Of a stretch of DNA of 47,396 bases, positions 2,054 to 47,080 are shown piece after piece. Position 1 is the stretch's first letter; each line of letters opens with the position of its first letter. The stretch comes from an uncultured Gammaproteobacteria bacterium (lineage in GTDB: Bacteria; Patescibacteriota; Microgenomatia; UBA10105; UBA927). Position numbers and translations under genes: made by a program. Below the pieces are notes generated by a model. It saw only the letters and a list, made by a program, of their open reading frames with translations, did not search any database and had not been told where the DNA came from. The stretch spans positions 1 to 47,396 of the forward strand of contig CAYHQC010000001.1 in the NCBI GenBank assembly GCA_964358845.1, written 5' to 3'.

Positions 2054-3037
2054 ATGAATTTAGAACAACTTCTCAAAGAATTTTTGGAATATCTAGAAAT
2101 TGAGCGAAATGTTTCGCATTTGACTATCCGAAACTACAAACATTATTTGGAGCGGTTTTTGGCTTTTTTGGGAAGTCCGATTTTAGGTGACTCCTCTACC
2201 CCATCCGTGTCCCGCGAAGCGGGATCCGACTCCGCCGGAAAAATTTTAAAACCTTCTGACATTACCACAGAGTCAATTCGTCAATATCGATTATATTTAT
2301 CACGATATACCGATGCGCATCAGATGACCTTAAAGCGAGTCACACAAAATTATCACCTCATCGCACTTCGAAGTTTCTTGAAGTATCTTAATAAACGAGA
2401 TATTGCGGTCATTTCTCCTGATAAAATTGAGCTTCCAAAAGCGGAGAGTCATTCAATCAAATTCTTGGATCATGATCAAGTGACGAGGTTATTAAATCAA
2501 CCGGAGATTTCAAAGACTGAAGGGCTTCGAGATAAAGCAATTTTAGAAACGTTGTTTTCGACTGGGCTTCGTGTATCGGAATTAGTTTCTTTAAATCGTG
2601 AACAGGTTAATTTAGAGAGACGAGAGTTTGGCGTGGTTGGTAAAGGAAGACGTGTGCGCATTGTCTTTTTATCCGAGTCATCAGTGACTTGGATACAGCG
2701 GTATTTGGCGACGCGTGAGGATCAGTTGGCACCGCTTTTTATCCGTTACAGCGGCAAGAAGCCGGATGAACATGACACGACAGGATCGTCTATTCGATTG
2801 ACGGCCAGAAGTATTCAACGATTGGTAGATAAGTATGCAAAGAAAGCAAGGCTTCCTATCAAAATTACTCCACATGGATTGCGTCATAGTTTCGCGACCG
2901 ATCTTTTAGGAAATGGCGCTGACCTTCGCGCTATCCAAGAATTGTTAGGTCACAAAAATGTCTCAACTACGCAGATTTACACACATGTAACTAACCCGCA
3001 ACTCCGCGCAATTCATGATAAGTTTCATAGTAAATAA
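2054..3037 (+). CDS. xerC: Tyrosine site-specific recombinase, XerC/XerD family, with a GC-rich in-frame insert in the N-terminal SAM-like domain
   Basis: Motifs TGLRVSEL, HGLRHSFATDLL and LLGHKNVSTTQIYTH (catalytic R...HxxR...Y). Confidence 0.9.
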   Translation: MNLEQLLKEFLEYLEIERNVSHLTIRNYKHYLERFLAFLGSPILGDSSTPSVSREAGSDSAGKILKPSDITTESIRQYRLYLSRYTDAHQMTLKRVTQNYHLIALRSFLKYLNKRDIAVISPDKIELPKAESHSIKFLDHDQVTRLLNQPEISKTEGLRDKAILETLFSTGLRVSELVSLNREQVNLERREFGVVGKGRRVRIVFLSESSVTWIQRYLATREDQLAPLFIRYSGKKPDEHDTTGSSIRLTARSIQRLVDKYAKKARLPIKITPHGLRHSFATDLLGNGADLRAIQELLGHKNVSTTQIYTHVTNPQLRAIHDKFHSK

Positions 3038-3042
3038 TATGT

Positions 3043-4125
3043 ATGGAAGTATCACACACCATTAAATCAGAAAATAAAATTGGAATTCCCAATAAAACAC
3101 TGAAAGATTTAACCCCGATTGAGCAACAGCAATTCTTCGCCGACGTGATTGCTGAAAAGGATAAATTTGTTGCATGGTCAGAAGAACAATTGCGCGATGG
3201 CAAAGTAACTGAATCCATGGGAAAAAAATTTATGGAAACCGTGAAGAACGCACCCTCAAAAAAACTTCTTGTAGCGTCTATGTCTGTTATTGGGTTGGCG
3301 AATATCGGACTAGCTATCGCTGGCAAGAAGGCTGGATTGTCAAACGGTGCGATAGCTGATATGTGGGTCGAAACGATTGGATTGCCGGTTTTAGAAGAAT
3401 TAGTCTTTCGTTCTAGACATATACCTAATTTTCTTACTTGGGCGGGAAAACAGGTAGGTTTTGAAGTTAGCCCTAACGTTTCCAGATTAGGAGGGGCAGC
3501 AATTTTTTCAGCTGGCCATGACTTTGATTACATAAGAAGAAACAAAAAACATATGGATGTGTTGAACTTTGCGCAAAAGAGCACAATGGGGTTGCTACTG
3601 AACAAAGTATCGTCAGAACATGGATTATCGGCAAGTATACCAGCTCATGCATTGTTTAACACTTTGGGAAACAGTGTTAAATATTTATGGGATTTCGCTC
3701 CAAATTATAGACCTCTTTGGTATACAATTTTTTTGACACGACAAGCTTGTGAACTTGGTATCGGAATTATTGGAATTAAAGAGGTTCTTGATGATAAACA
3801 TATTAATGATACGTTGAAACGTATACGAATTGCAGAATCATCTAGTCAATCTATAGACATGGAAAAGGAATTTGTTAATAAGTTGTTAAAAAATCCTTCA
3901 ACCGATGGCTATAAGTTTCAAGCTGGAGTAGAACTTGCTTATGTGAACGCCGAACTAACGATGCCTGATATGATAAAAGATATAATGACACCAGATGATT
4001 ATGCTCGGTCACAAGTGCACAAGATGGTGACAAGTGTTTGGAAGGATGAAAAAACACTTCCTCATCGATTAGAAAAAGCAAATACGTACATTACTGAACA
4101 AATAGCGAAACGCACGAATGTATGA
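3043..4125 (+). CDS. CPBP (CAAX/Abi) family intramembrane protease-like protein
   Basis: PVLEELVFRSRH (EExxxR), FSAGHDF (FxxxH) and AHALFN (HxxxN) in the expected order. Starts 5 nt after the xerC stop. Confidence 0.5.
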   Translation: MEVSHTIKSENKIGIPNKTLKDLTPIEQQQFFADVIAEKDKFVAWSEEQLRDGKVTESMGKKFMETVKNAPSKKLLVASMSVIGLANIGLAIAGKKAGLSNGAIADMWVETIGLPVLEELVFRSRHIPNFLTWAGKQVGFEVSPNVSRLGGAAIFSAGHDFDYIRRNKKHMDVLNFAQKSTMGLLLNKVSSEHGLSASIPAHALFNTLGNSVKYLWDFAPNYRPLWYTIFLTRQACELGIGIIGIKEVLDDKHINDTLKRIRIAESSSQSIDMEKEFVNKLLKNPSTDGYKFQAGVELAYVNAELTMPDMIKDIMTPDDYARSQVHKMVTSVWKDEKTLPHRLEKANTYITEQIAKRTNV

Positions 4126-5123
4126 ACATCACGGTTTTATACAATAAGCCCACGGCACGATTTATCAAAAATGCGACATTCATGCAGGCAGAGGAAGACA
4201 CCGAAGAATCGGCCCGAGAAGTGGCGGAAGCGCTCAAGGAAAAAGGAGCTAAGCCTACATTGGTCGCTTTAACAGAAAATACCATTGAATCAGTTATTTC
4301 TTCCTTACCTTTTGATTTGATATTTAATCTTATCGAATGGACCGGTGTAGATACGCCGTATGCTATAAAAACATATGATGCGATGAACGCTCGCGGATTT
4401 TACTACACAGGGGCTACTCTAGAGACATATTTGTTATCGTGTGATAAGTCGATGATGAAAAAGCACTTAGACGAAGCTTCCCTGCCTACTGCGCGTTGGC
4501 AATTATTTTTAAGCGGCAATGAACACGTACGAACAGATTTTCATTATCCCTTGATTGTAAAAGTAAGCAGCGAACATTCAAGTGTCGGATTGTCAAAAGA
4601 AGCGATCGTAAACGACGTAAAAAGCTTGATACCTATTGTCAAAAAAAGACTTGCTGAATACCAGCAACCTGTGTACGCAGAAGAGTTTTTATCAGGGCGT
4701 GAATTTCAGGTGACACTGTTAGAAAGGTCATCAGGACTGACTGTTTTTCCGATATCCGAAGTGCGCTACACCAATGGCACGGATGTACCGTTTTTGACCT
4801 ATGCCAGCCGTTGGAACGCAAATCACAGGGACTATCAAAATTCTGATGTGATTTTAGCTAAACTAACAAAAGAGCTTCAAGAAAAAATTGAAGAGATGAG
4901 TAAAACTGCATTTACGACATTTGGCTATCGAGATTATGCACGGTTTGATATCCGTTGCCAAAACAAAGAGCCTCTTTTTTTGGAAATAAATTCAAATCCC
5001 GGGTTAAGCGATGATGCAGAGTATGGCATGACCGTTTCGTATAAAGCGCTCGGGTTGACGTTTGCTGATTTTGTGTGGGAAATAGTCGAGTCCGCACTTA
5101 GGCCTCATCCGATAATAACTTGA
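4122..5123 (+). CDS. ATP-grasp ligase (D-Ala-D-Ala ligase / RimK-like family)
   Basis: ATGA start/stop overlap with the upstream gene. Ddl-like layout with DKSMMKKHL, YPLIVKVSSEHSSVGLS and FLEINSNPGL. Confidence 0.65.
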   Translation: MNITVLYNKPTARFIKNATFMQAEEDTEESAREVAEALKEKGAKPTLVALTENTIESVISSLPFDLIFNLIEWTGVDTPYAIKTYDAMNARGFYYTGATLETYLLSCDKSMMKKHLDEASLPTARWQLFLSGNEHVRTDFHYPLIVKVSSEHSSVGLSKEAIVNDVKSLIPIVKKRLAEYQQPVYAEEFLSGREFQVTLLERSSGLTVFPISEVRYTNGTDVPFLTYASRWNANHRDYQNSDVILAKLTKELQEKIEEMSKTAFTTFGYRDYARFDIRCQNKEPLFLEINSNPGLSDDAEYGMTVSYKALGLTFADFVWEIVESALRPHPIIT

Positions 5124-5858: not shown

Positions 5859-6602
5859 TTAGCGTAATTGGTAGCTTAGGCTTACCTGTATGATTATTTC
5901 GTTTGATCCAGGCTCTATGGTGGAGGGAGCAGCTTGGTCTCCACCTGCCTCCATGGCAGTTTTGGCATACATCATGCGTGGAACCGGACCATCGTTATTT
6001 ACTCCTTCAGAGTAGTTGACGATAGTGCCCAATGTAAATCCTACGGTTTTTGCTGCGAGTTCAGCTTTCTTTCTCGCATCCGCGACGGCTAGTGTTCGCG
6101 CTTCGTTTTCCGCTTTGGCGCGATCGTCGACATCAAAGGAAACACCGTTTACTTGATTTGCACCATTGGCTGTAGATGCGTCTATGACATCATTTGCTTT
6201 ATCCATGTCCCGAACCTTTATGGTGAGCGATGAATTCGCATCATAGCCTATGATCCGTTGAACGCTTTCTTGGTAATCGTATCGTGGATTAATAGAATAG
6301 TTTTCTGTTTTGATATCTTTGGCATCGATACCAAGTTGTTTTACCGCTTTGGAAATGGCATCCATTTTTGTATTGAGATCTTTTTGGGCAAGCTTTACAG
6401 TCGGACCCTGGGAAGTAACACCGACAGATACAAGGGCTATATCTGGTATGACTGTCGTTTTTCCGATACCCGTCACAGTAAAAAAGTCTGATTTTTCTGT
6501 GGTGATACTGCTGACACTAAATGGTATTGGACCGACGAGTTTTACAAATGCAAAAAGAGAGAGAAAGAAAATAATGATGGCTCCGCCTGCTGATAGTTTC
6601 AT
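5859..6602 (-). CDS. SIMPL/DUF541 (BP26-like) secreted protein
   Basis: N-terminal TM/signal segment. Has the typical TVTGIGKTTVIPDIA...V.V pattern and a C-terminal IEPGSNEI..V.V.Y.L. Confidence 0.75.
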   Translation of the reverse strand: MKLSAGGAIIIFFLSLFAFVKLVGPIPFSVSSITTEKSDFFTVTGIGKTTVIPDIALVSVGVTSQGPTVKLAQKDLNTKMDAISKAVKQLGIDAKDIKTENYSINPRYDYQESVQRIIGYDANSSLTIKVRDMDKANDVIDASTANGANQVNGVSFDVDDRAKAENEARTLAVADARKKAELAAKTVGFTLGTIVNYSEGVNNDGPVPRMMYAKTAMEAGGDQAAPSTIEPGSNEIIIQVSLSYQLR

Positions 6603-8002: not shown

Positions 8003-8746
8003 ATGAACCCAAAGTCATTTACTGCAAGCCTTATCGCGATGATTTTAGTTGGCCTTCTTTTTGTCGTTGGCGTGAGCTTTTTACTGCCTTGGAATATGAT
8101 TTCGTGGGGAAAGATTGGTGTGCAGCCAATTAATAGCGTAACTGTTGTTGGAGAAGCCAGGTCTCAGCAAAAAACTCAAATTGCTATGTTTAGTGCTGGA
8201 GTGAATGCATATGGGGATGACAAGCAAGTGGCAGTAAACGACGTGAACAAAAAAGTTGATGCGATTATTACAGCTGTCAAAGAGTTTGGGGTAAAAGCTG
8301 AGGATATCAAAACGCAGAGCCTTAATATTTATCAAAACCAAGAGCAATATTATGAAGAAGGGCGGCAAAAAACTCGGCCCGGCCAGTGGAATGTAAGTAA
8401 CACCATAGAGGTAAAACTTTTGGATGTTGATCGTGCATTTTCCCTTGCAAGTGTCTTTACTAAAAGTGGAGCGACCAATGTCAATGGCCCCAATTTTAGT
8501 TTTGATGATACGACAGGAGCTTCCAATGAATTGTTTGATCAAGCGCTCAAAAACGCTGGCGAGAAAGCAGCGATTGTTGCCAAAAGTAGTGGACGCACGC
8601 TTGGCAAGATCATAAGTGTCGTAGAGGGATACGCGCCCGCTCAAACGTTTTATCGTATGGAAGGCGGCGGTGGTGGAGGTGGCGGGATAGAACCGGGGTC
8701 TGGGACAGTAAACAAAACCGTCACCGTGACGTATGAGTTGGAGTAA
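8003..8746 (+). CDS. SIMPL/DUF541 protein, paralog of 5859-6602, with a Gly8 run near the C-terminus
   Basis: Same architecture as the other SIMPL ORF: TM segment, VTVVGEA..., IEPGSGTV..TVTVTYEL. Confidence 0.75.
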   Translation: MNPKSFTASLIAMILVGLLFVVGVSFLLPWNMISWGKIGVQPINSVTVVGEARSQQKTQIAMFSAGVNAYGDDKQVAVNDVNKKVDAIITAVKEFGVKAEDIKTQSLNIYQNQEQYYEEGRQKTRPGQWNVSNTIEVKLLDVDRAFSLASVFTKSGATNVNGPNFSFDDTTGASNELFDQALKNAGEKAAIVAKSSGRTLGKIISVVEGYAPAQTFYRMEGGGGGGGGIEPGSGTVNKTVTVTYELE

Positions 8747-23835: not shown

Positions 23836-24510
23836 TTATGATTCATCTATGGCTACATGTCTTATAAAAGCTAATTCTTTTTGGTAGTCTGCTTGGTCAA
23901 ATGTGAATGATTTAAATGACTCAAGCGTTTTAAAAAAACTTAGAATTTTATTTGTATTGCAATATATATTTCTGTCATTGAGGTATTCTGAGAGAGATGA
24001 CCATTTATATTGAATAAGATCTTCTATTTCTTTTATCATGTATGCTGTGAACGGATTTAGATGAATATATCGCAAGATATGTAATAATTGCTCGTCTGAT
24101 TCTATTCGAATTGCTTTGAACGAGCCTTGGAAAAGGGGCCCTATGCGTTCATTTTTTGTATTGAAATATTTTGTGTAACTATCTTGGGATTTTTTCATAA
24201 ACATTGAGATACCGCCGTCACTCACCTGTTCGAGAAGAAGGTGATAGTGATTGGGCATTAGAACAAATCCAAGAAGTTTGACATCCAGAGGTTGGAGAAG
24301 TTGAGCTTGTTGTATTTGTGCACGATCTTCTAAATTTAGCTTGAGAAAGTTGGTGTATTTAAAGGGTTGTTGTGTGGTCCGATAATATGTAAGCACATCA
24401 AGGAATCGTTTTCGGGAACGATCGTCAGAAAAAATATCACGTTTTTCAACTCCACGATTAAAAATATGGTAAACCTGATTTGTAATAAGAGGTATTAGTC
24501 GGTATGGCAT
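23836..24510 (-). CDS. IS200-like / REP-associated tyrosine transposase (RAYT), HUH Y1 family
   Basis: LMPNHYHLLLEQ (HUH) and RYIHLNPF (catalytic Tyr motif). Bracketed by REP-A copies. Confidence 0.8.
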   Translation of the reverse strand: MPYRLIPLITNQVYHIFNRGVEKRDIFSDDRSRKRFLDVLTYYRTTQQPFKYTNFLKLNLEDRAQIQQAQLLQPLDVKLLGFVLMPNHYHLLLEQVSDGGISMFMKKSQDSYTKYFNTKNERIGPLFQGSFKAIRIESDEQLLHILRYIHLNPFTAYMIKEIEDLIQYKWSSLSEYLNDRNIYCNTNKILSFFKTLESFKSFTFDQADYQKELAFIRHVAIDES

Positions 24511-43074: not shown

Positions 43075-44271
43075 TCATTGTAGTTTGATTGAGACAAATT
43101 TTTTCTTCCCTATTCTGACCATACTGCCATCTATGACCACTGATGATGCGGTGGCTTCTTCATTATCAATTTCTATTGCCTTTTGGTCAAGCAGGCGTTT
43201 GACCTCGGATTTGCTCGAAACAGTTCCGCTTGAGACTAGTACATCAATAATATTAAGAGATGCTATTGGATCCACGGATACTTGTTGTGCATCATCGGCT
43301 GTTGCAGCATTTCCTTTTTGGTGTATTGATTCAAACGCAACTTGCGCTTTTTCTGCATTTGCTTCGGAGTTAAATGCTCTGGTAAGTTCAAATGCTAATC
43401 TTTTTTTCCAAACCATCGGATTATCCCCTGCTTTCATTTTGTCTTTCATGGTTTCAATCTCATTCATCGGCATATCAGTAAGAAGCGTAAAACACGGAAT
43501 AATCGCATCATCTCCTAATGACATGATTTTGCCATAGAAATCCGTTGGTTCATCAGTAAGCCCAATAACATTGTTTTCAGTTTTTCCAATTTTAACTCCC
43601 TTAGCATCAGCAAGAAGCGGCACGGTCATGACAAATTTTTCTTTATTCAGCATGTTTTTCACAAGCGTTCTGCCCGCCAACATATTAAATGTTTGATCAC
43701 TGCCTCCGAGTTCTAGATTTACTTGCATAGCGACAGAATCGTATCCCTGAAGCAGCGGATATAAGAATTCCCGAAGGTTAATTGGGTCTCCTGCTTTCAT
43801 ACGAACCTGATACATATCGCGCTCTATCATTTGTTGTACGGTGAAGTTTTGTGCGATGTTTAGCATATCTTCAAGTTTTAATTTCGTCAGCCAGTCGCCG
43901 TTGTAGAGAATTTCTACTGGATTTTCTCCTTCAAAACGGACGATTTTAGAAGCCTGCAGTAAGTATGCTTTCGCATTATCGCGCAATTCTTCACCGGACA
44001 TAAATTTTCCACGAGCTTTCATTTTACCGGATGGATCACCCGCAAGTCCTGTACCATCACCGACTAAAAATATTACTTTGTGTCCTAAATCTTGCCACTG
44101 ACGTAATTTTCGAAATCCCACGGCATGTCCGATATGAAGTTGTGTTCCCGTCGGATCAAACCCTTGGTAGAGTTTTAACTTTTTTCCACTGCGAAGTACT
44201 GTCTCCAATGCTTCTTTGGTAGGATATATCGTATCAACTCCACGTGTAAGTAATACATCGATCTCATCCAT
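43075..44271 (-). CDS. tyrS: Tyrosyl-tRNA synthetase, full length with C-terminal S4-like domain
   Basis: GFDPTGTQLHIGHAV (HIGH), GDGTGLAGDPSGK, ELGGSDQTFN, KIGKTE (KFGKT-type KMSKS), C-terminal SKSEVKRLLDQKAIEID. Confidence 0.92.
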   Translation of the reverse strand: MDEIDVLLTRGVDTIYPTKEALETVLRSGKKLKLYQGFDPTGTQLHIGHAVGFRKLRQWQDLGHKVIFLVGDGTGLAGDPSGKMKARGKFMSGEELRDNAKAYLLQASKIVRFEGENPVEILYNGDWLTKLKLEDMLNIAQNFTVQQMIERDMYQVRMKAGDPINLREFLYPLLQGYDSVAMQVNLELGGSDQTFNMLAGRTLVKNMLNKEKFVMTVPLLADAKGVKIGKTENNVIGLTDEPTDFYGKIMSLGDDAIIPCFTLLTDMPMNEIETMKDKMKAGDNPMVWKKRLAFELTRAFNSEANAEKAQVAFESIHQKGNAATADDAQQVSVDPIASLNIIDVLVSSGTVSSKSEVKRLLDQKAIEIDNEEATASSVVIDGSMVRIGKKKFVSIKLQ

Positions 44272-44285
44272 ATAGATATTTTACA

Positions 44286-45236
44286 CTATATCATATTTTT
44301 GAGTTGAGGATGCCCGTTTATAAACATTGTTTCAGCCAACATAGCTTTTTGCATTCCGTGAACATCAGAAACTATGATACGTGCCAATAGTCGTTTGGCC
44401 GTCAACGGATGCAGTGTATTGATGACACCATCATCCGTTGTTGTACACAGCTTAAAGAATATTGCGATATCTGTATCATGGATTTTCATAATTTTATTAA
44501 ACTGTGTAGCAGGATCCTCTTCCATGCCGATGAAGTTGTCGGCGCTTTTGCTCATTTTTTCTGCTCCATCAGTGCCAGGTAAGTACTCAAGAAGCAGCGC
44601 CTCCTCTGGGGGAAGGCCGAATTTTTCCATGACCTGACGAGTCATAAGAAAATTAAATTTCTGATCAGGACCACCAAGCTCAATGTCTGCTTTGATCGCT
44701 ACACTGTCAAACGCCATAAGGAGCGTGTAGAACATTTCGTGGAATCCTAATGGTTTTCCAAGTTTTTCGCGCATGCGAAACGTTTCATGCCGCATGAGTT
44801 GTTCTTTTGTAACCGTTGCCATTAATCGGATAGTTTGTTCAAGTGTGAGTGTGTTGTACCATTCGCTTTGAAAATGTACTTCAGTTTTTTCTATATCAAT
44901 GAATTTGGCAGCAAAACTTGTGAACCGCTTCGCATTTTCTTGTGTTTGAGCAAGAGTGAGCATATTTCGCGTATCACTTTTTCCTACAGGATCCCCAATT
45001 TGCGCAGTGAAATCTCCGATGATAAATACGGCAGTGTGACCCATATTTTGAAATTCACGCAATTTTCGAAGTGGCACGGTATGCCCCAAGTGAAAAGATG
45101 TCGCCGTTGGATCTATACCATATTTGATTCGAAGTGGTGTGTTGGCTGATAGCTTCTTTATCATTTCGTTTTTTTCAATAACCTCACACACACCATGAGT
45201 CAGTAATTTGTTAATAGCGTCAGTTTGATTGTTCAT
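44286..45236 (-). CDS. TyrRS paralog: catalytic core with intact HLGH and KMSKS, no C-terminal S4 domain
   Basis: YGIDPTATSFHLGHTV, IIGDFTAQIGDPVGKS, ELGGPDQKFN, KMSKS. 316 aa versus 398 aa for the neighbouring tyrS. Confidence 0.8.
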   Translation of the reverse strand: MNNQTDAINKLLTHGVCEVIEKNEMIKKLSANTPLRIKYGIDPTATSFHLGHTVPLRKLREFQNMGHTAVFIIGDFTAQIGDPVGKSDTRNMLTLAQTQENAKRFTSFAAKFIDIEKTEVHFQSEWYNTLTLEQTIRLMATVTKEQLMRHETFRMREKLGKPLGFHEMFYTLLMAFDSVAIKADIELGGPDQKFNFLMTRQVMEKFGLPPEEALLLEYLPGTDGAEKMSKSADNFIGMEEDPATQFNKIMKIHDTDIAIFFKLCTTTDDGVINTLHPLTAKRLLARIIVSDVHGMQKAMLAETMFINGHPQLKNMI

Positions 45237-45237
45237 A

Positions 45238-46125
45238 TTACCTCCTTTTGAAAATAGTATTTATAATGTGTTGAGCTTTATTTGGAATTGAACGTGATGA
45301 TATGGATCCACATTGTTTTTCAAATGCGCGGGCAATTGTCGCGATATGTTTTGTGGTACCACCGAAATGTGGATCATTCCAGCCGCATAACGCTCGCGCA
45401 AACTTTTCTAAAGCGTTTTCGTGCGGATCTAAGAGCAATCGCGTCTCACCATCGATTGAAATGTATGGTGATACTTTTTGTCGATGTTTATCAAAGGTGC
45501 GTCCAGACTTCGTATGCAAAAATGCTACTGGTATCGCTATATGTTTTTTGAGCTCTGTGTCGAAAAAACGTTCATCATGACCAGACGGCTCAGGAGAACT
45601 ATCAATAGTCCAGCCAAGTTTTATGCCAAGATTATGATGTTCTTTGAGCCATAAAATATCTGCAAGCTCATGTCGTAAGTACTGATTGTCCATAGCGGGA
45701 AGTGATGTAAGTATATTTTGAAAAGATGGATTGGATGATATCGTCGAATGAACAATAATTCGAAAATTTACTAAATGTAACGTATGGATAATTTTGTTAC
45801 ATAATTGCTTCGTGCGATCGGTAAGGTTTATTATTAGTTCTTCGGACATAAATGAGTTTGTGCGTGCGTGTGAATCTGCAATAAGAATAATGACTTCGGA
45901 TAAGCCAAAAAATTGTTTCAGCCTTTCTGCGATGAGAAAGAAGCTTAGAATATCAAATGGTATAGCTATTGCGGGTTTTTTATCAGTGCATAGTCCTACA
46001 CCAAAAAATATGCTTTTTTTTTGAAATGTTGAGGCATCAAACGTATTGAGCGCCACGCAACAAGACGCCGCTTCCAAGAGTGGTTCATTGTGTATGAACG
46101 TATGTACTTCATGTTGTGTAATCAT
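45238..46125 (-). CDS. Hypothetical protein (paralog B), possibly a divergent class Ic aaRS-like Rossmann fold lacking HIGH and KMSKS
   Basis: Start reset to ATG 46125 because the ORF-track extension runs through the tRNA. Shares FFGVG, ILIADSHA, GIKLGW, HDERFFD and SPYI with ORF 46220-47080. Confidence 0.6.
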   Translation of the reverse strand: MITQHEVHTFIHNEPLLEAASCCVALNTFDASTFQKKSIFFGVGLCTDKKPAIAIPFDILSFFLIAERLKQFFGLSEVIILIADSHARTNSFMSEELIINLTDRTKQLCNKIIHTLHLVNFRIIVHSTISSNPSFQNILTSLPAMDNQYLRHELADILWLKEHHNLGIKLGWTIDSSPEPSGHDERFFDTELKKHIAIPVAFLHTKSGRTFDKHRQKVSPYISIDGETRLLLDPHENALEKFARALCGWNDPHFGGTTKHIATIARAFEKQCGSISSRSIPNKAQHIINTIFKRR

Positions 46126-46126
46126 A

Positions 46127-46216
46127 GGTGCGGAGAGAGGGATTTGAACCCCCGAAGCGTCTTTTGAACGCAACAGATTTACAGTCTGTTCCAATTAGCC
46201 TCTCTGGCATCTCCGC
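46127..46216 (-). tRNA. tRNA-Tyr (anticodon GTA), bacterial class II type with long variable arm
   Basis: Hand-folded. 7-bp acceptor GCGGAGA/TCTCCGC, anticodon arm ACAGA-CTGTAAA-TCTGT, variable arm GCGT-loop-ACGC, T arm GGGGG-TTCAAAT-CCCTC, discriminator A, G1:C72. Genomic CC follows but the final A is not encoded. Confidence 0.9.
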
Positions 46217-46219
46217 ATA

Positions 46220-47080
46220 TTATTTCGCACATGCATCTACAATTTTTTGAATTTGCTTGAACGGATCAACTCCTCTTGGTGACCTCCCTTCTAATCGCGA
46301 CACGCTATTTCCTAGATTTACGAGTAGATTATGAAAATCATTTCCCATTGCGATTTCTTTTAATCTTTTTCGTACATCAGGAATTGCTTGGCCTAATGCA
46401 AAGTCCGGCGACCCAATGTATGGGGGAGCGAGATGGTGATTACCAAGAATGTCCTTGGTAGTTTTCATCCCTTCAAGGGTGCGTATGAAACCCATATGTT
46501 TTTTCAGATTGGGATTATCGTTTCTTGCGAACTGATCGAAATCTCTTTCATCCCATCGCAAGGGACCGATAATTGGTTTTTTCCGTGACTGCCAGCCGAC
46601 TTTGACTCCCACTTTGAGCACCGTTCGTGCATGTTCCATGTCATCGGCTTCCATTTCTGGATAGCTTGTCCGTGCGCTCATTTGCCACTGTGATGCATTT
46701 GATGACTGGATGATACGTATATCCGGCTCACCTAATGCTGAAAATAGTTTTTGTATGACCTCTGTAGCTTTATTGGCACTTTTTCTAATATTTTCTGTTT
46801 GACAGATATCATTGGCAAATCGCACTGCATGACCGTCTGCAATTAATACATTAATTTTTGAAGAAGCTCCTTGATGTTGTGCAGTCCGCGCAGTTTCGAT
46901 CGCTGTGACGGCCATGCCAATGACTCCAATGCCTATATCTGTGTTTACCATCCCTTTACGTTGTGCAACACCGATGCCCATAAAAACATTCGTGCCCTCA
47001 CCCTCTCCTTGCGGTGGTTGGATAGCAGCAATGATATTTCTATGCTTCTTTTCTACTTCGTGTAATATTTCTCTAATCAT
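46220..47080 (-). CDS. Hypothetical protein (paralog A of 45238-46125), possibly class Ic aaRS-like
   Basis: FMGIGV, NVLIADGHAV, GVKVGW, WDERDFD and APPYI are collinear with paralog B. The stop lies 3 nt before the tRNA 5' end. Confidence 0.6.
   Translation of the reverse strand: MIREILHEVEKKHRNIIAAIQPPQGEGEGTNVFMGIGVAQRKGMVNTDIGIGVIGMAVTAIETARTAQHQGASSKINVLIADGHAVRFANDICQTENIRKSANKATEVIQKLFSALGEPDIRIIQSSNASQWQMSARTSYPEMEADDMEHARTVLKVGVKVGWQSRKKPIIGPLRWDERDFDQFARNDNPNLKKHMGFIRTLEGMKTTKDILGNHHLAPPYIGSPDFALGQAIPDVRKRLKEIAMGNDFHNLLVNLGNSVSRLEGRSPRGVDPFKQIQKIVDACAK

Follow-up and report, generated by a model that had tools for sequence, protein, structure and literature searches.

A tyrosyl-tRNA synthetase-like protein family that lacks the HIGH and KMSKS motifs and may serve in quality control of tyrosyl-tRNA

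Introduction

What is the function of a gene that has kept the outline of a tyrosyl-tRNA synthetase (TyrRS) and lost its catalytic signatures? This question is raised by one end of a contig of 47,396 nt (CAYHQC010000001.1, assembly GCA_964358845.1), which is called the window throughout. The contig comes from an uncultured bacterium deposited as a gammaproteobacterium and placed by GTDB in the Patescibacteriota (Microgenomatia, UBA10105, UBA927). Two genes, here named parA and parB, flank a tRNA-Tyr gene and are followed by two TyrRS genes. An earlier note, made from the sequence alone, had described them as divergent paralogs with landmarks of class Ic aminoacyl-tRNA synthetases, as neither standard synthetases nor standard cyclodipeptide synthases (CDPSs), and as probably linked to tyrosine or tRNA. 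TyrRS discriminates weakly between D- and L-tyrosine and has no editing domain, and it is generally assumed that cells depend on DTD enzymes, which are unrelated to it. Editing modules are usually found both free-standing and in fused form.

In this study, we characterized parA, parB and their relatives by profile searches, structure prediction and comparison of gene neighbourhoods. We found that they belong to a real, well-supported and apparently undescribed family that retains a tyrosine pocket, has lost the motifs for amino-acid activation, and is associated with TyrRS in some lineages and with enzymes of D-amino-acid metabolism in others. The reading that we favour, with a probability of roughly 0.35, is that the family is an ATP-independent quality-control module of TyrRS that acts on the ester of Tyr-tRNA and most probably hydrolyses D-Tyr-tRNA-Tyr.

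Results

parA and parB belong to one large family

Both open reading frames (ORFs) were found on the minus strand, one on each side of the tRNA-Tyr gene, in the ORF list and the ARAGORN prediction. The earlier note had aligned them through five motif blocks, and these proved to be collinear in the two proteins: VFMGIGV, VLIADGHA, GVKVGW, WDERDFD and PPYI in parA correspond to IFFGVGL, ILIADSHA, GIKLGW, HDERFFD and SPYI in parB. The similarity between the two products (26% identity over 203 residues, BLASTP E 3e-9) places their paralogy beyond chance. Moreover, a family alignment of 33 sequences that includes both proteins (alignment A1) has 15 invariant columns, all of which are present in parA, and the family hidden Markov model (HMM) matches parA at E 6e-34. 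Residues kept in parA are G35, G37, D82, H84, A85, Y140, E144, D147, K160 and W163, together with D177-E178-R179, D182, G204 and P220-Y221. Equivalents of P56, D58 and R229, which are near-invariant in the family, are absent from it. parA also shows a weak match to the archaeal-type TyrRS model NF006330 (E 0.004, residues 54-128, 16 bits against a cutoff of 220). Its relatives comprise one database fragment (97% identical) and a homolog of 30% identity located at the same position in locus L005.

A related arrangement is present in locus L003 (2433-3895), where two tRNA-Tyr(GTA) genes lie 1.3 kb apart with ORFs of 103 aa and 327 aa between them. The 327-aa ORF stands in the parA position and aligns weakly to parA (BLASTP E 0.002, 79 residues). 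It has lost the ADxHA block and has no profile support, and judging from its sequence it may be a decaying third paralog.

Neither parA nor parB returned anything significant in Pfam, NCBIfam, PADLOC, PHROGs or PDB sequence searches. The close relatives of parB are 56 proteins of Ca. Gottesmanbacteria and other Patescibacteria, all unnamed or annotated as 'hypothetical protein'. A word-indexed protein search with a 131-sequence alignment retrieved almost exclusively this Gottesmanbacteria set plus three extra fragments, and a metagenome scan with a narrow alignment yielded 10 loci. The wider family was obtained from an exhaustive profile search, which collected 538 representative clusters (50% identity) at E up to 1e-3, 208 of them at 1e-30 or better. 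Some members are labelled as metagenome-assembled genomes (MAGs) of Parachlamydiales and Alphaproteobacteria, and one lies on a 1.6 Mb contig. The family is ancient and widespread in bacteria and archaea, and often TyrRS is not among its neighbours. Pfam and NCBIfam contain no model for it, and the literature searched contained no earlier description of it, only a report of the analogous ORF1 that is discussed below. A viral or defensive origin was also considered; the idea of anti-phage defence or phage origin was set aside, as there were no matches.

Fold and descent of the family

An AlphaFold2 model of parB, built from 33 family sequences, reached a pLDDT of 94.2 and a pTM of 0.93. When this model was compared with the PDB using Foldseek, the best 50 matches were all TyrRSs. 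The top matches were variants of M. jannaschii TyrRS (E 1.8e-8, TM score 0.62 over about 340 columns), followed by the human, A. fulgidus, S. aureus, E. coli and B. stearothermophilus enzymes. The model thus carries a Rossmann-type catalytic domain of the TyrRS/TrpRS kind, in line with the class Ic fold that the earlier note had read from the motifs. Profile-profile comparison agrees with this result. Using hhalign, the family profile was aligned with M. jannaschii TyrRS at E 3.7e-5 and with a TyrRS profile at E 1.5e-6 (probability 90%). This comparison pairs LIADSHARTN with LLADLHAYLN of M. jannaschii TyrRS, so the likeness that had been noticed between the hhIADxHA block and the ADLHA block of TyrRS holds. 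Both lines of computation that the note had called for, structure prediction with a fold search and profile-profile comparison, therefore point to TyrRS and not to an unrelated fold.

Sequence models reach the same relationship from a greater distance. A PDB profile search gave sub-threshold matches to TyrRS only, around the ADxHA block, and with the family HMM the TyrRS halves of natural fusions, including their ADxHA region, appear as secondary matches. PF00579 (tRNA-synt_1b) is matched weakly by 3 of 131 members, with a best E of 7e-4, and by neither parA nor parB at E up to 1. The CDPS Pfam model is matched by none of the 131, and no CDPS was found among the top 50 Foldseek matches or the PDB profile matches. 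The Pfam model of DTD (PF02580) does not match parA or parB either, and their fold resembles TyrRS, not the DTD fold with its Gly-cisPro motif. Because the fold matches, the hhalign results, the HMM cross-matches and the weak contacts with PF00579 concur, the family has, on the evidence of profiles and of the predicted structure, diverged from a class Ic catalytic domain, and TyrRS is its closest relative.

Motifs that were kept and lost

Residue conservation was counted over 169 family sequences and is given in parB numbering. Equivalences with TyrRS were taken from hhalign, in which the alignment ends at residue 204, and the roles of residues in TyrRS and CDPSs from PMC3105412. In M. jannaschii TyrRS, tyrosine is held by Y32, G34, Y151, Q155, D158 and Q173, and the Y151/Q155/D158 group contacts the alpha-amino group and the phenol hydroxyl of the substrate (PMC3105412). 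We found this network in the family. Position 40 is Phe in 96 sequences and Tyr in 57, G42 and Y149 are present in all 169, and D156 in 164. The departure from TyrRS consists of Gln-to-Glu replacements. At the position of Q155, Glu is found in 74% of the members (at position 153, 125 sequences have Glu and 44 have Gln), and at the position of Q173 in 168 of 169, where D184-E185-R186 of parB is aligned to E172-Q173-R174.

The signatures of activation are gone, as the earlier note had stated. The segment aligned to H42-L-G-H45 of M. jannaschii TyrRS reads xKxPAx, with no conserved His. In place of KMSKS there is a loop of the form GRTFDxxR(P/Q)K(A/V)SPY, with invariant P220 and Y221, which was placed against the KMSSS of M. 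jannaschii by eye alignment only, and no KMSKS-like pentapeptide occurs in the consensus of the 169 sequences. Since both HIGH and KMSKS are lost, synthesis of tyrosyl-adenylate is not expected of the family. The residues that are invariant or near-invariant and specific to the family are P56, D58, D84, H86, A87, K169 (169/169), W172 (169/169), D184 (164/169), D189 (166/169), G208, P220, Y221 and R229. The polar and aromatic residues that the family has gained also include E185. The CP1 region, which is the dimer interface of TyrRS, spans 57 residues where 75 of M. jannaschii TyrRS are aligned, a difference of about 18.

These patterns suggest that the tyrosine pocket is intact, apart from two Gln-to-Glu changes around the alpha-amino group, and that the machinery for handling the triphosphate has disappeared. 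The former nucleotide cleft appears to have been rebuilt with Lys, Arg, Trp and Tyr, a set that could hold a phosphate and stack on a base. As the pocket is conserved over 169 sequences from varied contexts, it would be a ligand-binding or catalytic site and not a decayed one.

The resemblance to TyrRS (PF00579; the M. jannaschii structures 1J1U and 1ZH0 are closest) covers the catalytic fold over nearly the whole length, the ADxHA block, the tyrosine-binding positions, a short helical C-terminal domain, and a genomic and physical association through fusions. On the other hand, the family lacks HIGH and KMSKS, stays below the PF00579 threshold, has Glu for the glutamines at the amino group and a shorter CP1, and has acquired the invariant K169, W172, D189, P220-Y221 and R229.

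The other relevant comparison is with CDPSs (AlbC, Rv2275, YvmC; PF16715), which also derive from class Ic synthetases, have lost HIGH and KMSKS, and combine a pocket Gly with a Tyr-x3-Glu arrangement. Like them, the family would be expected to use aminoacyl-tRNA and not ATP plus an amino acid. In AlbC, G35, Y178 and E182 superimpose on G34, Y151 and Q155 of TyrRS, the E182Q variant is inactive, and the nucleophile S37 has no counterpart in synthetases (PMC3105412). The family might accordingly be an aminoacyl-tRNA-dependent tyrosyl transferase, which would hold Tyr-tRNA-Tyr in the old pocket and pass the tyrosyl group to an amine or hydroxyl acceptor with no covalent Ser intermediate; candidate acceptors are amino acids, D-amino acids possibly among them, sugars and molecules related to peptidoglycan. 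The class Ic fold, the loss of the two motifs and the Gly plus Tyr-x3-Glu constellation favour this idea, with the Glu present in 125 of the 169 sequences and Gln in the remaining 44. However, the column that lies under S37 is Gly (G44) in 169/169 members, as the earlier note had seen in the two genes, and no Ser, Cys or Thr is invariant in the family that could carry an acyl intermediate. Together with the absence of CDPS matches at the levels of profile and structure, this makes a transferase rather unlikely in our judgement. The family differs further from CDPSs in that its structure is nearer to TyrRS, it keeps the Asp for the phenol hydroxyl and a C-terminal helical domain, and its neighbours are TyrRS, tRNA-Tyr and D-amino-acid enzymes instead of tailoring enzymes. 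By motifs and profile the family is not a TyrRS, as no match to tRNA-synt_1b exceeds the Pfam threshold, and it is not a CDPS either, since the nucleophile is missing and CDPSs are absent from the profile matches and the top structural matches. The double negative of the earlier note is therefore upheld.

Genomic context in Patescibacteria and fusions to TyrRS

The order tRNA-Tyr, family gene, TyrRS is nearly invariant in Patescibacteria. In each of 18 loci the family gene has a TyrRS gene downstream, in most of them as the direct neighbour, and a full-length TyrRS was found downstream in every Patescibacteria locus examined. Directly upstream, tRNA-Tyr(GTA) is present in the window and in 14 of the 15 Patescibacteria loci for which upstream sequence is available. 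The housekeeping tRNA-Tyr and TyrRS are the only companions of the gene in these loci, with no tailoring or export genes, which argues against a transferase.

The junction between the tRNA and the family gene is very tight. In the window and in loci L002, L004, L007, L008, L009, L011, L012, L014 and L016, only one nucleotide stands between the encoded 3' end of the tRNA and the ATG (…GCAC(C)-T-ATG), and in L013 the two share a base, as the final A of CCA also opens the start codon. Because of this 1-nt junction, parB has no room for a ribosome-binding (Shine-Dalgarno) site. The sequence suggests that 3' processing of the tRNA would release a leaderless or near-leaderless parB mRNA, as a bacterial counterpart of mitochondrial tRNA punctuation, and the family gene would be expressed as one tight unit with tRNA-Tyr and TyrRS. 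A role in the 3' maturation of tRNA-Tyr was considered and set aside, since it leaves unexplained the clades with no tRNA or TyrRS nearby.

A similar gene order was documented by Mukai et al. (2017, Life 7:8, PMC5370408) in Microgenomates, in operons composed of tRNA-Trp(A73), ORF1 and TrpRS-A1, for which the authors proposed a heterodimer. According to their report, ORF1 carries motifs like HIGH and KMSKS, its model shows no Rossmann fold, and in those bacteria it contains no Trp residues (PMC5370408). Judged by gene order and description, the two systems are alike: within the same superphylum, an unknown class-I-like ORF lies between a tRNA gene and the gene of an extra class Ic synthetase, and the corresponding order was found in the window and in the 14 of 15 loci mentioned above. 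Moreover, ORF1 operons are sometimes followed by a canonical synthetase or headed by a Trp repressor, like loci of the family. They differ in that ORF1 belongs to a tryptophan system and the family to a tyrosine system; in contrast to ORF1, the family also contains an invariant Trp, and its Rossmann-type fold is clear.

We also found natural fusions of the family domain to TyrRS (Table 1). These independent fusions involve two types of TyrRS and occur in both orders, which is strong evidence for a function shared with TyrRS. Synteny with TyrRS and tRNA-Tyr, together with these fusions, thus substantiates the tyrosine- or tRNA-linked role proposed in the earlier note.

Synteny and fusions could also be explained if the family protein were a non-catalytic partner of TyrRS, either as the inactive half of a heterodimer with TyrRS or the short TyrRS, or as a sensor of tyrosine or tRNA-Tyr that tunes TyrRS. 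Fusions in both orders are double-length proteins, adjacency to TyrRS is strict, the catalytic motifs are lost, and a heterodimer has been suggested for ORF1 of the tryptophan operons (PMC5370408). The short TyrRS of this sub-lineage has no tRNA-binding domain and might need a partner, and the HTH_3 or Trp-repressor genes that stand upstream in some clades would fit a sensor. A precedent is the double-length TyrRS of Leishmania major (PDB 3P0H-J; Larson et al. 2011, as cited in PMC9437257 and PMC5370408), which, according to these citing papers, contains an inactive half and forms a pseudo-dimer. This trypanosomatid half resembles the family in being a motif-less TyrRS-like module, joined to an active TyrRS in some lineages (P0070, P0071 and P0149 here). 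Unlike it, the family is usually encoded by a separate gene, as in the window, has a strongly conserved pocket, and often has no TyrRS nearby. A scaffold would not be expected to keep the pocket and some 12 other polar residues with little or no variation across very different contexts, many of them with no adjacent TyrRS, and the shortening of CP1 affects the dimer-interface region. The AlphaFold2 model of the natural fusion P0071, built on a shallower alignment, showed no confident inter-domain packing (pTM 0.48), and its superposition on the Leishmania enzyme gave a TM score of 0.25 and an rmsd of 25.8 Å; this comparison weighs little either way. On balance, we consider a purely structural or sensory partner distinctly unlikely.

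Genomic context in other lineages

Outside the Patescibacteria, the family is found in the company of enzymes that act on D-amino acids. In three lineages, genes for a GCS2 carboxylate-amine ligase, an MR_MLE epimerase and a GATase/Peptidase_C26 protein lie beside the family gene or its TyrRS fusion. This set accompanies both bacterial-type fusions and the unfused member P0055, so that TyrRS is either fused or adjacent (Table 1). We found no description of this gene set; its logic resembles a stereo-inversion by acylation, racemisation and deacylation, which here possibly passes through a gamma-glutamyl intermediate. The archaeal-type fusion (L040 5310-11605; L041 26-6321) has a Peptidase_C26 gene upstream, and further genes beside it encode an FAD oxidase of the DAO family, a tRNA_edit protein of the YbaK type, and an ammonia-lyase or aminomutase for aromatic amino acids. 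This locus looks like a small island for the handling of tyrosine or D-tyrosine.

In a clade of MAGs labelled Parachlamydiales or Alphaproteobacteria, the family gene lies between a Trp repressor gene and the gene of a CntK-like racemase, with overlapping genes, and a VanX-like M15 dipeptidase is sometimes present. The column of D156 is Gly in half of the members of this TrpR-linked clade, which suggests a different aromatic substrate there. In another clade the family gene overlaps an Asp/Glu racemase gene. In the largest clade, the gene of a YkuD L,D-transpeptidase is immediately upstream at six loci (L024, L025, L028, L029, L031 and probably L034) and overlaps the family gene in L024 and L025. 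In one distant member, an unknown gene comes next and an M19 dipeptidase gene stands two genes downstream. Altogether, the presence of three unrelated racemase or epimerase folds, two dipeptidase families of the D-amino-acid type, an L,D-transpeptidase and a DAO oxidase beside one family is far above chance. A role as a decoy for inhibitors of TyrRS was set aside, as it leaves the racemase contexts unexplained.

Two further neighbourhoods were each seen once. The fusion to GNAT Acetyltransf_6 (L023 4264-12487) lies inside a polysaccharide-synthesis cluster with three more Acetyltransf_6 genes and an Asp/Arg hydroxylase gene, a context quite unlike the other family loci. On one metagenome contig, a Sulfotransfer_1 gene is immediately upstream of a family member (L033 2-613), with a possible link to sulfation of phenol (tyrosine).

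The neighbours of these clades bear on the transferase as well. Dipeptidases of the M15 and M19 types, MR_MLE epimerases that could act on dipeptides, an L,D-transpeptidase, and the fusion of one member to an acetyltransferase among three more genes of that type in a polysaccharide cluster would all suit an enzyme that attaches tyrosyl groups. The hydrolases in these neighbourhoods, on the contrary, suggest salvage and not synthesis.

The same clusters raise the possibility that the substrate is a free amino acid. The family protein would then be an enzyme or binder for D- or L-tyrosine (tryptophan in the TrpR-linked clade), or a stereo-inverting enzyme, which would take part in D/L interconversion or salvage with the adjacent racemase, epimerase or ligase, or would epimerise the tyrosyl ester on the tRNA. 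Racemase genes of two unrelated folds adjoin or overlap genes of the family, and other family genes are embedded in the GCS2, MR_MLE and C26 cluster. Where TyrRS has a pair of glutamines on either side of the alpha-amino group, the family has the carboxylates of E153 and E185, and the loss of D156 in half of the TrpR-linked clade is consistent with a change of aromatic substrate. Nevertheless, the near-invariant embedding between tRNA-Tyr and TyrRS and the fusions to TyrRS would be left unexplained, and these clusters already hold a dedicated racemase or epimerase. To our knowledge, racemisation on a class Ic fold has no precedent. We therefore regard this explanation as very improbable.

Features of the gene row and of the window

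The coordinates of the gene row, of the conserved blocks of parB, and of the fusions and gene sets discussed above are collected in Table 1.

Table 1. Location of the genes, conserved blocks, fusion proteins and gene sets described in the text. Positions refer to the window unless a locus is named.
Feature	Position	Strand	Description
Small ORF	47301-47083	-	directly 5' of parA; about 68-72 aa; AGGAGGTG precedes its ATG
parA	46220..47080	-	ORF; 286 aa, pI 9.4; divergent paralog, apparently TyrRS-derived
tRNA-Tyr (anticodon GTA)	46127..46216	-	ARAGORN; sequence and junctions read directly
parB	45238..46125	-	295 aa, pI 8.5; predicted class Ic catalytic-domain fold plus three C-terminal helices
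parB F40-F41-G42-V43-G44	45994..46008	-	corresponds to M. jannaschii Y32-I-G34-F-E36 and AlbC L33-I-G35-I-S37
parB L81-I-A-D84-S-H86-A87	45865..45885	-	ADxHA block, common to archaeal/eukaryal TyrRS (ADLHA, M. jannaschii 67-71)
parB Y149-x3-E153-x2-D156	45658..45681	-	spacing of M. jannaschii Y151-x3-Q155-x2-D158; Y-x3-E resembles CDPS Y178/E182
parB K169-L-G-W172 ... G182-H-D184-E185-R186-F-F-D189	45559..45621	-	in place of the TyrRS strand and GGxEQ/GGxDQ motif
parB G208-R-T-F-D ... K217-V-S-P220-Y221-I	45460..45504	-	conserved loop at the place of the KMSKS loop, different sequence
Short TyrRS paralog	44286..45236	-	316 aa; PF00579 E 5.5e-62, TIGR00234 E 1.3e-70 (model positions 3-316 of 406)
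Full-length bacterial TyrRS	43075..44271	-	398 aa; HIGH, KIGKT, S4-like C-terminal domain
P0070			TyrRS then family domain (bacterial-type fusion)
P0071			family domain then bacterial-type TyrRS
P0149			family domain then archaeal-type TyrRS (ILLADVHS, KMSAS)
P0081			GNAT Acetyltransf_6 then family domain
GCS2/MR_MLE/C26 and TyrRS/family-domain gene set	L001 3327-8941		
GCS2/MR_MLE/C26 and TyrRS/family-domain gene set	L019 1693-7391		
GCS2/MR_MLE/C26 and TyrRS/family-domain gene set	L021 2462-8173		

At the end of the window, the minus strand carries in order the small ORF, parA, tRNA-Tyr, parB, the short TyrRS, the full-length TyrRS and RecG, and then NusB and RNase III. A terminator-like hairpin with a T-run precedes the small ORF. 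As this ORF has no family match and no homolog at related loci, it may not be a real gene. A GGAGGG ribosome-binding site is present 5' of parA, the stop codon of which is 3 nt from tRNA-Tyr. This tRNA is the sole one that ARAGORN detects in the whole window. It is of bacterial type, with G1-C72, A73 and a long variable arm, and its CC is encoded while the final A is not. The spacer between it and the ATG of parB is 1 nt. The parB ORF could be extended to a TTG at 46194, overlapping the tRNA; its homologs share the ATG start at 46125 (alignment A1).

The two downstream ORFs match PF00579 and TIGR00234 strongly, so the two TyrRS genes that the earlier note had placed nearby are present. The short TyrRS starts 1 nt past the parB stop and has its own GGAGG site. 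Its HLGH and KMSKS motifs are intact, and the protein ends after the helical domain, with no C-terminal S4-like tRNA-binding domain. Orthologs of 310-324 aa are found in L003, L005 and L008, each between the family gene and the full-length TyrRS. The short TyrRS has Met at the position of B. stearothermophilus Q173; this was considered as a specificity switch and dropped, since Met or Val also stands there in some full-length TyrRSs of Patescibacteria. The full-length TyrRS starts after a spacer of 14 nt and matches PF00579 at E 1.4e-63 and TIGR00234 at E 2.7e-99, in addition to S4/SYY matches in its C-terminal part.

The remaining scanned part of the window is that of a typical Patescibacteria chromosome, with genes for gyrase A/B, type IV pilus components, a Ddl-like ligase and inorganic pyrophosphatase. 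Mobile-element genes are present at 2054-3037 and 23836-24510 (a tyrosine recombinase/integrase and an IS200-like Y1 transposase), and two SIMPL/DUF541 paralogs (5859-6602 and 8003-8746) stand on either side of FolD. ORFs of 360 aa (3043-4125) and 232 aa (1244-1942) have no Pfam match, and the former overlaps the start of a D-Ala-D-Ala-ligase-like gene (4122-5123) by 4 nt.

Discussion

The contexts described above are heterogeneous, and the explanation that covers all of them with the fewest assumptions is editing of tyrosyl-tRNA. As a quality-control module, the family protein would bind the tyrosyl moiety, and probably also the 3' end, of tyrosyl-tRNA-Tyr without ATP. It would act on the ester as an editing module for TyrRS, and its most probable target would be D-Tyr-tRNA-Tyr, which it would hydrolyse. 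In Patescibacteria this action would be in trans, and in the lineages with TyrRS fusions in cis. In other lineages its partners would be enzymes by which D-amino acids are released, inverted or used, and it would shield translation while D-aromatic amino acids are present. The salvage of D-amino acids by a dipeptidase together with a racemase, or by a ligase, an epimerase and a hydrolase, would create a need for protection against D-Tyr-tRNA. Pocket retention, the size of the family and its D-amino-acid neighbours also point to a likely function away from cyclodipeptide synthesis. From this evidence we infer that the family binds tyrosyl-tRNA, and D-specific hydrolysis is speculative. Minor support comes from the basic pI of parA (9.4) and parB (8.5), compared with 5.8-6.4 for the TyrRSs.

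A more specific version of this proposal, which we hold only tentatively, is that the family is a D-aminoacyl-tRNA deacylase of a kind not recognised before, which arose from the TyrRS catalytic domain through loss of ATP binding and is specific for tyrosine, or for tryptophan in some clades. In such a system, the GCS2, MR_MLE and C26 proteins would together invert the D-tyrosine that is set free, by an ATP-driven route through gamma-glutamyl compounds.

The proposed role, removal of a wrong aminoacyl group from tRNA, is the only likeness of the family to DTD1 (PF02580), DTD2 and DTD3, and it is also that of AlaX, YbaK/ProX and the editing domain of archaeal ThrRS. With modules of the AlaX, YbaK and ThrRS type, the family additionally shares its occurrence both free-standing and fused to the cognate synthetase. 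It has no sequence or fold kinship with DTD or with these modules, and it would be specific for aromatic residues whereas DTD is general. An approximate query with E. coli DTD found no canonical DTD in the 408 kb examined, which is too little sequence to show genome-wide absence and gives weak support. Duplication of TyrRS as a means to cope with D-tyrosine has a parallel in TyrZ of B. subtilis (Williams-Wagner et al. 2015, via PMC9437257). As described in the citing article, TyrZ is a complete and active synthetase that is highly selective for L-Tyr against D-Tyr, whereas the family cannot activate tyrosine by the standard mechanism.

Several points weigh against an editing function. Hydrolysis, D-specificity and even tRNA binding are deductions, and the sequence offers no basis on which a TyrRS-like pocket would discriminate between D- and L-tyrosyl groups. 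This matters, as a general hydrolase of Tyr-tRNA would be harmful. A YbaK-type editing gene is already present in one of the clusters, where the family could do something else. The clades associated with racemases and transpeptidases are only 22-35% identical to parB, and their function may differ. parA, which lacks P56, D58 and R229, may not share the activity of parB. Finally, the neighbouring dipeptidases and dipeptide-type epimerases fit a peptide-forming role equally well.

If the quality-control reading is true, TyrRS has an editing domain after all, as a separate protein in Patescibacteria (in trans) and as part of one chain in the fusion proteins (in cis). The family would then represent a new solution to chiral proofreading or, should its members use aminoacyl-tRNA outside translation, a second lineage comparable to CDPSs. 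It may also explain ORF1 of the analogous tryptophan operons. Defining the family would improve the annotation of many genomes, in which the members of its 538 clusters are labelled hypothetical. For the genome-reduced Patescibacteria, it would give a testable function to a gene that lies inside a core translation operon.

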